From an archaeon (GTDB taxonomy: Archaea > Asgardarchaeota > Thorarchaeia > Thorarchaeales > Thorarchaeaceae): a DNA stretch of 32,000 nt. The position numbers and the translations under genes are program-made. The notes beneath the pieces were generated by a model. That model ran no database searches. It saw nothing but the letters and a program-made list of their open reading frames with translations, and was not told where the DNA came from. The stretch lies in NCBI GenBank assembly GCA_024275415.1, contig JAJRZD010000020.1, positions 30,001-62,000 of the forward strand, in the 5' to 3' direction. This document shows positions 4,626-5,723 of the stretch, piece after piece. How positions within the stretch are numbered: the stretch's first letter is position 1; each line of letters begins with the position of its first letter.

Positions 4626-5723
4626 CTAACTTTCGAGCAGAACCAAATAAGGCAGCGCGTTTCTCACATAGTGATCAACCTTCTCTTCAAAGGCCATATC
4701 ACTTCGAAAGTCATCTGTAGTTAATTTCCTGAATGTATCCTCATCGAAGCTCTTTAGGAGCTGTTTGAGGGAACGCCGGACAAAGTATGTGGCCCTGTCG
4801 CATATCAGAAGGACAGTAAGGTCACCCAACGACTCGAAGAGAAGCGTGCGGTTTTTGGAATTGATAAGCTGCAGTCGGGCATCTGTCTGGAGAGATTCAG
4901 AAAGCAGTGTCGAAATCGCGGTCACTGCCATGCTCATAAGATGCTCAGGTACTTTCGAACTCTCGAAACCTTTGTTCTGCACCAGTCTAGAATAGACAGC
5001 GATACCAGTCGCGTTGTAGAGGATGACATCATGAATGGGAACTGGCATCCTATATAGATAATCGGGATTACGGATGTAGATTGAAACAAGCAAGACAAGC
5101 CCGATGAATGTGATGAGGTCACCGACTTCATAGAGAGAGATGTCGCCAAGCGAACTCAGTTCACTATGATTGGCAATAGCGGTCGGTATACTTCCAATCG
5201 TCAGGATTAAGAGAGAAACCCATTCGGTTCTCGCAGCACGTTCTCGTGTCAGCAGCCAGCAGCGGAATGATACATACATCGCGAACAGGAAGGTAAGGAT
5301 ACGGGAGAGGTCATGTGCGTAGTCGTTCGCTTCTGAGAGGTTGGGTAATGTGGACGAACTTGTAAGAATGATCACGCTTGTGGCGAGTCCAATTCCCAAT
5401 AATGCGCTCATTATGACCAACCGGTCTAATCGAGGAATGAGCCGGACAACTTGTTCGAAGTGCAGATAGATGAAATATAGCATGAGAACATAAAAGACTC
5501 CATTTACGAGAACGGATGTCTTTCCATTCAATAAACCATCAATGGGAATAAAGGGCTCAATTGCGAAAACGGAAACTCCCACAAAACCAAAAATGAGACC
5601 AATAGAGAGAAGGTGTGCCTGCCTGTTTTTCCGTATGGTTTGATAGATGAATAGTCCGAGGAGTATCCCCAGCACGATGTCAAGAGCTATCAGAATGGTT
5701 TCTGCAATCCCGATTGCCTGCAT
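4626..5723 (-). CDS. Seven-TM membrane protein with a C-terminal longin-like cytoplasmic domain
   Basis: Seven hydrophobic segments lie in aa 10-217. The soluble tail (aa about 230-365) has a beta-beta-alpha-beta-beta-beta-alpha pattern (ILYNATGIAVYS...HLMSMAVTAISTLLSE...RTLLFE...TVLLI). The domain call is by pattern recognition only. Confidence 0.7.
   Translation of the reverse strand: MQAIGIAETILIALDIVLGILLGLFIYQTIRKNRQAHLLSIGLIFGFVGVSVFAIEPFIPIDGLLNGKTSVLVNGVFYVLMLYFIYLHFEQVVRLIPRLDRLVIMSALLGIGLATSVIILTSSSTLPNLSEANDYAHDLSRILTFLFAMYVSFRCWLLTRERAARTEWVSLLILTIGSIPTAIANHSELSSLGDISLYEVGDLITFIGLVLLVSIYIRNPDYLYRMPVPIHDVILYNATGIAVYSRLVQNKGFESSKVPEHLMSMAVTAISTLLSESLQTDARLQLINSKNRTLLFESLGDLTVLLICDRATYFVRRSLKQLLKSFDEDTFRKLTTDDFRSDMAFEEKVDHYVRNALPYLVLLES

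Follow-up and report, generated by a model that had tools for sequence, protein, structure and literature searches.

The 32,000-nucleotide window (the whole stretch of DNA that was analysed) contains, on the minus strand at positions 4626-5723, an ATG-initiated open reading frame for a protein of 365 amino acids, P0001. On basis of the reading frame, the orthologue alignment and an AlphaFold2 model, the gene encodes a fusion of a seven-helix transmembrane (7TM) domain and a longin domain. Ten full-length orthologues (47-77% identity) could be aligned to it nearly from end to end, and given this conservation over almost the entire length the gene is real; the closest named relatives (48-77% identity) are hypothetical proteins of Thorarchaeota, and judging from these the host is most likely a thorarchaeon. 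A Shine-Dalgarno-like GGAGA (5731-5735, minus strand) lies 8-12 nt 5' of the start codon, and most orthologues carry a comparable GGAG or GGTG ahead of the start. The ribosome-binding site is overlain by a strong hairpin with a perfect core of 8 bp (5730-5760, minus strand; z -3.44). The hairpin was absent from the three orthologues examined, and considering that absence it may be a chance feature, or else a palindromic binding site or a translational control specific to this lineage. An AT-rich stretch around 50-60 nt upstream of the start (about 5770-5783, minus strand), common to two close orthologues, may be an archaeal promoter. The gene is flanked on one side by a divergent gene for tRNA-Thr(CGT) (5853-5925, plus strand), transcribed in the opposite direction, and on the other by a thiL-like gene, beyond which lies a radical SAM gene. 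The presence of thiL, the radical SAM gene and a peptidase gene beside the P0001 gene is common only to the closest orthologues, and for that reason we rejected the idea that the gene forms an operon with thiL or the radical SAM gene. Three relatives (L014, L016 and L087) contain one in-frame stop each, two within the alpha1 region of the longin and one after TM1. The differing positions of the stops led us to reject a programmed event, and they look like assembly errors or pseudogenes.

Seven hydrophobic segments were recovered by hydropathy analysis, both in the single sequence of P0001 and in the profile of a 124-row family alignment. The AlphaFold2 model that was built with this alignment (mean pLDDT 93.9, pTM 0.91) has transmembrane helices at residues 6-32, 37-54, 69-93, 99-121, 127-159, 162-186 and 197-218, in accordance with the seven helices that had been predicted in the initial annotation, and a short helix at residues 220-224 after TM7. 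The membrane domain as a whole (residues 6-218; 5070-5708, minus strand) is connected to the tail by a conserved linker (residues 219-229; 5037-5069, minus strand), which includes the short helix and the previously recognized NPDYLYRMP sequence at residues 219-227. In the family alignment, Lys and Arg are concentrated in the loops after TM1, TM3 and TM5 (on average 2.9, 2.1 and 3.1 residues, versus 0.5, 0.2 and 0.4 in the other three loops), which by the positive-inside rule puts the N-terminus outside and the tail, as had been proposed, in the cytoplasm. The outer loops in the model are short and there is no extracellular ligand-binding domain.

In fold, the membrane domain came closest to Ste2, a class D GPCR (Z 13.9, rmsd 4.1 over 213 residues, 8% identity). 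Next came a designed GPCR-like fold, ACER3 and numerous GPCRs of class A, class C and the adhesion class (Z 11-13), the identities to the GPCRs being 6-15%. The domain thus has seven transmembrane helices in a GPCR-like arrangement, with the N-terminus outside and the C-terminus inside. As helical bundles can reach such Z scores without kinship, the likeness is borderline and taken to reflect a common arrangement and not homology. The D/E-R-Y at the end of TM3 and the NPxxY in TM7 that characterize class A GPCRs were each found in 0 of the 124 family rows; the N-P-D-Y that follows TM7 of P0001 is not an NPxxY. Other fold matches included AdipoR2 (Z 11.1), the GPCR-like domain of LYCHOS (Z 11.0) and channelrhodopsins. 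Together with the match to ACER3 (Z 12.4) and the buried His, Asp, Arg and Glu residues in the clade of P0001, the matches to AdipoR2 and the channelrhodopsins might suggest that the 7TM domain is itself an enzyme, channel or photoreceptor, such as a CREST-type hydrolase or a rhodopsin, that is regulated or localised by the longin. We consider this very improbable: from the CREST zinc motifs, HxxxH in TM7 occurred in 0/124 rows and SxxxH in TM2-3 in 7/124, a retinal-type Lys in TM7 is lacking in P0001 (T205) and its clade, and the buried polar residues are not conserved family-wide, unlike catalytic residues. By the features tested, P0001 is not a class A GPCR, a rhodopsin or a CREST hydrolase.

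A Lys in the middle of TM7, in the column of P0001 residue 205, was observed in 19 of the 124 rows (e.g. P0022, P0024 and P0039; L037:7127-8233). These relatives all fall in one half of the tree and share the pattern G-D-x-x-K-x-x-G, often accompanied by Trp/Asp where TM5 begins, and their spacing is unlike the DxxxK of rhodopsins. The Lys could bind an anionic ligand, a Schiff base being less likely.

Neither Pfam nor NCBIfam provided a name for P0001. The 7TMR-DISM_7TM family (PF07695) matched it with an E-value of 6.6e-4 and 20.1 bits, below the Pfam cut-off of 29, and at E below 0.01 7TMR-DISM_7TM and HisKA_7TM were recovered in 3 and 1 of the 124 rows, respectively. HisKA_7TM clusters were found near P0001 at 0.80-0.81, which is a lead only, and a search of the own genome with the HisKA_7TM family gave no match.

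The cytoplasmic tail comprises residues 230-365 (about 4626-5036, minus strand), i.e. 136 amino acids, in line with the alpha/beta domain of around 135 residues noted earlier. In the AlphaFold2 model it consists of strands 230-236 and 242-249, helix 260-278, strands 286-288, 293-299 and 302-308, and helices 313-325, (328-335) and 343-356. This is the b-b-a-b-b-b-a-a order of a longin, in which a five-stranded meander is covered by one helix and rests on two others. Residues 220-365 folded alone gave b-b-a-b-b-b-a-a-a and a short terminal strand, and the top 20 VIA rows for this tail-only model were all longins (Z 9.1-11.0 over 113-126 residues). These included Fuzzy (Z 11.0, rmsd 3.1 over 125 residues), Bet5 (Z 10.6) and Mon1-Ccz1 (Z 10.2), but also AP-3 mu, AP-2 mu and VAMP7; in fact, AP-mu and VAMP7 scored on par with Mon1 and Bet5. 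Foldseek ranked TRAPPC1 first (E 2.4e-5), again supporting a longin, and the same protein headed the sequence profile comparison of the family, together with Trs23, though weakly (E about 0.02). Curated Pfam longin families gave no above-cut-off hit for P0001; among the relatives, hits at E below 0.01 were obtained for Fuz_longin_1 (7/124) and Sybindin (3/124), the best at 4.2e-5. The C-terminus carries a motif with the family consensus F-P-Y (4644-4658, minus strand), in which P358 is present in 97% of the rows.

Several other assignments of the tail were considered and rejected. A roadblock/LC7 domain has the order a-b-b-a-b-b-b-a and an N-terminal helix, whereas the tail opens with two strands and ends in helices, and roadblocks reached a VIA Z of at most 9.1, over residues 6-117 of the tail-only model. 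A full DENN or NPRL2 architecture does not apply since P0001 ends directly past the longin, with neither a DENN lobe nor a C-terminal domain of the NPRL2 type. None of the 50 best structural rows was a PAS or GAF domain, and strands and helices follow one another as in a longin. On the strength of the predicted models, the tail is a true longin domain, a module on which eukaryotes dock small GTPases. From the longin, roadblock and uDENN folds that the initial annotation had put forward for comparison, the longin was thus upheld and the roadblock and the full DENN were dropped on element order, length and the VIA and Foldseek matches. Considering that the fold is neither PAS nor GAF and that the tail lies inside the cell, its structural claim stands.

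A profile search of 1.84 billion representatives yielded 357 clusters (50% identity) at E below 1e-3, some of them longin-only; most of the best 150 of these 357 matched over the full length (340-440 aa). The Atlas clusters of the 7TM-longin family are unnamed and 93-100% archaeal, and a genome scan with a narrow alignment returned records of Thorarchaeota and Promethearchaeota only. Matches with E below 1e-8 were present in 191 of the 201 genomes of the phylum, a count that includes longin-only proteins. Two out of five complete genomes had 7 full-length matches each and the other three, at the sensitivity used, tail matches only, although some of the matching frames in the latter measured 344-373 aa and may be distant family members. 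The paralogue count proposed in the initial annotation came to five 7TM-longin genes in the own genome (C123, C89, C62, C12 and C122), 20-32% identical in local alignments; in the family tree (FastTree), four own-genome paralogues were placed on long, unsure branches. No longer fused forms of the P0001 family were found, which is weak evidence. The related longin itself was detected with the tail profile in about 25 ORFs of the own genome, including TPR-longin and longin-winged-helix-like proteins. Four proteins of this genome end in the same longin class, namely three TPR-like proteins and one of 1798 aa (C1:14332-16353, C45:7661-9673, C30:58640-61249 and C45:30699-36095), the 1798-aa protein having a large extracellular region and one likely transmembrane helix. 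These are other sensor-like fusions.

Conservation within the membrane helices is higher in the inner halves (1.78 bits) than in the outer halves (1.30 bits). In the 16-member clade of P0001 the outer half contains the near-invariant residues N74, N133, H137, D138, R141, N185, Y198, E199 and D202, with Y78 likewise a subfamily-specific polar residue, and most of these differ in other clades. Judged from the alignment, this would be the pattern of receptors that differ in their ligands but have one output in common. The structural ties of the tail with AP mu/sigma, COPI and SNARE longins (VIA), the short outer loops and the lack of an extracellular ligand-binding domain could also be reconciled with a constitutive membrane anchor, a coat or adaptor-like scaffold comparable to p18 for Ragulator, whose 7TM bundle senses nothing. 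Yet seven helices would be superfluous for an anchor, and the clade-specific pocket of buried polar residues (with D138 and R141 in 16/16 clade members), the conserved cytoplasmic polar network and the 5-7 divergent paralogues per genome all argue against it, which makes a mere anchor improbable in our view.

Co-variation was analyzed by mean-field coupling on 175 rows, with noise from near z 5. The top pairs were S318-Y359, E161-R225, R101-F147, Y86-F147, E90-R101 and H88-Y216, where S318 (helix alpha2) pairs with Y359 of the C-terminal motif and E161 (intracellular loop 3) with R225 of the linker. As far as co-variation can tell, these pairs connect the intracellular loops with the linker and seal the bottom face of the longin. 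The pairs P97-L319 (z 5.7) and A36-F314, both near the noise level, would set the bottom face of the longin on the loops; which face of the longin points to the membrane is hence suggested by weak co-variation and was not read from coordinates.

Two copies of P0001 folded together with ESMFold2 gave a homodimer with an ipSAE of 0.70, versus 0.01 for the best of three controls. In the calibration of the ipSAE mark, 20 of 30 proteins solved as pairs and 1 of 23 solved as single chains reached it, counts that are only rough for the homodimer because the analysis's own alignment was used. Between runs at least 78% of the contacts agreed and pLDDT was at least 77. The predicted interface has two layers. 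In the membrane, TM4 (residues 99-121; 5361-5429, minus strand) packs against TM4 and the start of TM5. Below, the hydrophobic face of longin helix alpha1 (residues 260-278; 4890-4946, minus strand), through residues 262-274, meets the edge strand region of beta3 (residues 280-294; 4842-4886, minus strand), where the two sheets would join. The model supports pairing of P0001; solved longin dimers exist, and the prediction may have reproduced the longin layer from these. Longins dimerise through beta3 and alpha1, with the GTPase site on the top helix pair (Levine et al., PMC3747258). The predicted longin interface is this canonical geometry of a GTPase platform, and dimerisation via alpha1 and beta3 was seen in the predicted model only.

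On the other side of alpha1, opposite the hydrophobic face, positions 264, 265, 268 and 272 lie outside the dimer contact and are small (G/A/S/T) in 69-94% of the 124 rows; position 269 on this side also keeps small residues in the family. Considering this composition, the face is a candidate partner-binding surface. In MglB, changes of Ala to Arg in the top helix reduce MglA binding tenfold (PMC3199381); this helix was matched to alpha1 of P0001 by fold and not by alignment. The motif of alpha1 is common to many soluble Asgard longins and may, for that reason, serve only folding or dimerisation. Many longins, like those of SNAREs and the adaptin subunits, do not bind GTPases via the alpha1 face (PMC3747258). 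Position 265 is Met in the subfamily of P0001 versus Gly in about 80% of the other rows, and on the supposed platform face this Met may alter the binding of a partner or prevent it.

The own genome holds about 42 small-GTPase domains, none of them encoded next to P0001. As the initial annotation had stated, there is no adjacent gene for a small GTPase or a kinase. On this contig, the closest GTPase gene lies at a distance of 18 kb. Among the loci compared there was no conserved GTPase or signalling neighbour, and no conserved kinase or response regulator. A small GTPase was present in 12 of 40 fetched loci, 7 of which represent one syntenic cluster from one family. Independent loci with a GTPase within about 6 kb amounted to roughly 6 of 34, against about 4 expected (12% background, own genome); for the own paralogues, 2 of 5 had a GTPase within 4 kb (p 0.08). 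A gene-neighbour link to GTPases was rejected, as the frequency is near background once the syntenic cluster is counted once. Tran et al. (PMC10933270) state that partners cannot be inferred from gene order. In other Asgard genomes, the family profile also matched longins that share a single reading frame with a small GTPase, and these fusions, as sequence evidence, would place the domain in a GTPase-associated class without naming the partner.

Various individual arrangements were observed. The cluster of one Asgard family (L037:5786-16926, L038, L036 and L055) combines 2-3 7TM-longin genes with a Rab-like GTPase gene, to which L037 and L038 add an Arf-like GTPase, and the interleaved genes presumably encode, as we read the sequences, an aldehyde oxidoreductase, a MoaD-like protein and an Ldh2-like dehydrogenase. 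It is a good place to test receptor-GTPase pairing. Elsewhere, a receptor and a GTPase gene stand in same-strand tandem, 241 bp apart (L033:6013-7957, the two genes at 6013-7152 and 7394-7957), a GTPase gene converges on two tandem receptor genes (L063:5397-8171), and a receptor gene is divergent from genes for a longin protein and two GTPases (L049:6033-11885). The paralogues C89 and C62 (L076:4334-5592 and L077:2209-3762) are accompanied by a similar short small GTPase and then a protein of 240-250 aa without a Pfam hit. Paralogue C12 (L078:334-4736) lies near a 398-aa multi-pass membrane protein without a Pfam hit and a MinD/ParA-type ATPase; profile comparison with this multi-TM neighbour gave a probability of 4%.

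P0001 might also be a sensor whose longin makes no direct contact with a GTPase but heterodimerises with soluble longin proteins, such as the TPR-longin and longin-winged-helix proteins or two-component/ATPase modules, and signals through these. This would agree with the roughly 25 ORFs that match the tail profile, with the many fusions of NPRL2-like longins to two-component domains for which the text of Liu et al. (10.1101/2020.10.19.343400, Fig. 5c) accounts in Asgard archaea, with the HisKA_7TM/7TMR-DISM sensors as nearest, be it weak, named look-alikes of the membrane part, and with a Met265 that may block a GTPase. However, the homodimer model already fills the alpha1/beta3 edge, a kinase or response regulator is not conserved as a neighbour, and a heterodimer would still form a GTPase-type platform. 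We regard heterodimerisation of this kind as unlikely, if still the most credible competitor.

The explanation that we prefer, with a confidence about evenly divided between acceptance and doubt, is that P0001 is a dimeric membrane sensor that would offer a longin platform to a small GTPase. The 7TM bundle, with its N-terminus outside, is joined in the computed models via the short conserved linker to the cytoplasmic longin, and two copies would pair, with TM4 as the contact within the membrane and alpha1 and beta3 of the longins as the contact below it. The paired longins are predicted to make a two-helix platform as longin and roadblock dimers offer to small GTPases. The two-helix bottom face of the longin would dock on the intracellular loops, so that the alpha1 pair would face the cytoplasm. 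A small polar ligand may bind in the pocket that is specific to the subfamily and lies in the outer half of the helix bundle, different paralogues sensing different ligands, and the cytoplasmic polar network (H88, E90, R101, E167, Y216 and E161-R225) may relay the change to the longin dimer. The relay would alter how one of the many small GTPases in the cell is recruited, or its nucleotide state, where the longin dimer would act as an allosteric platform and not catalytically as GEF or GAP. On their own, longin platforms do not usually work as catalytic GEFs (PMC3747258). The predicted alpha1/beta3 dimer and the conserved outward face of alpha1 would suit a GTPase platform. The coupling of an external signal to a small GTPase in a GEF-like manner, as proposed at the outset, is an inference; a partner did not emerge and GTPase genes are not enriched nearby.

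Comparison with known systems makes clear in what respects P0001 differs. It shares the longin fold and the predicted alpha1/beta3 dimer with TRAPPC1/TRAPPC4 (Bet5/Trs23), Mon1-Ccz1 and Fuzzy-Inturned, and the predicted dimer may be likened to that of the bacterial roadblock MglB, another small-GTPase platform. Platforms of the TRAPPC, Mon1-Ccz1 and Fuzzy type, however, occur in solution, form heterodimers for the most part and depend on additional subunits for their GEF activity, whereas P0001 is fused to a 7TM domain and has an extra helix and the C-terminal F-P-Y motif. With the 7TMR-DISM_7TM (PF07695) and HisKA_7TM (PF16927) sensors it has in common the seven helices, the outside N-terminus and a C-terminal fused output, but this output is a longin instead of a kinase, GGDEF or phosphatase domain, and an extracellular DISM domain is lacking. 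The GPCRs (class D Ste2 and classes A, C and adhesion) share the helix arrangement, the topology and the short helix after TM7, but P0001 has no DRY or NPxxY and its output is a fused longin and not a heterotrimeric G protein. A heterotrimeric G-alpha is not known from Asgard archaea. The glucose-responsive AtRGS1 of plants is also a 7TM domain fused to a G-protein regulator (PMC3386157, PMC5506085), although the analogy is one of concept only, as the RGS domain acts on G-alpha and a longin is not an RGS domain. LYCHOS/GPR155 is a GPCR-like membrane sensor that controls the longin-containing Rag GAP complex GATOR1 (10.1101/2024.11.21.624772), but it contacts GATOR1 in trans and carries a transporter domain in addition, whereas P0001 unites 7TM and longin on one chain. 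The NPRL2-like fusions of Liu et al., as far as their text describes them, are like P0001 Asgard longins joined to signalling domains within the same lineage; that text names two-component domains and nowhere mentions 7TM or transmembrane fusions (10.1101/2020.10.19.343400).

Full-text literature searches, which left the fusion figure of Liu et al. unread, returned no description of a 7TM-longin fusion, and neither a structure-based preprint on ESPs nor a 2026 review mentioned one. A 2026 preprint counts '7TM proteins' among earlier ESP families, and in view of this entry and the longin-fusion figure of Liu et al. a prior listing of the fusion is possible. P0001 itself is real, a 7TM sensor variant with a eukaryote-type output domain and a predicted function.

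Asgard archaea possess dozens of small GTPases and longin/roadblock proteins, the switching and membrane recruitment of which are open questions. The phylum-wide 7TM-longin family is a concrete and testable candidate for the missing input to these GTPases, and if no GTPase binds, it would still be a receptor family of Asgard archaea that lacks a name and has an unusual output domain. A 2026 review has framed the debate on the origin of GPCRs around rhodopsins only (PMC13466386). With the present family, a non-rhodopsin 7TM family from the closest relatives of eukaryotes enters that debate.
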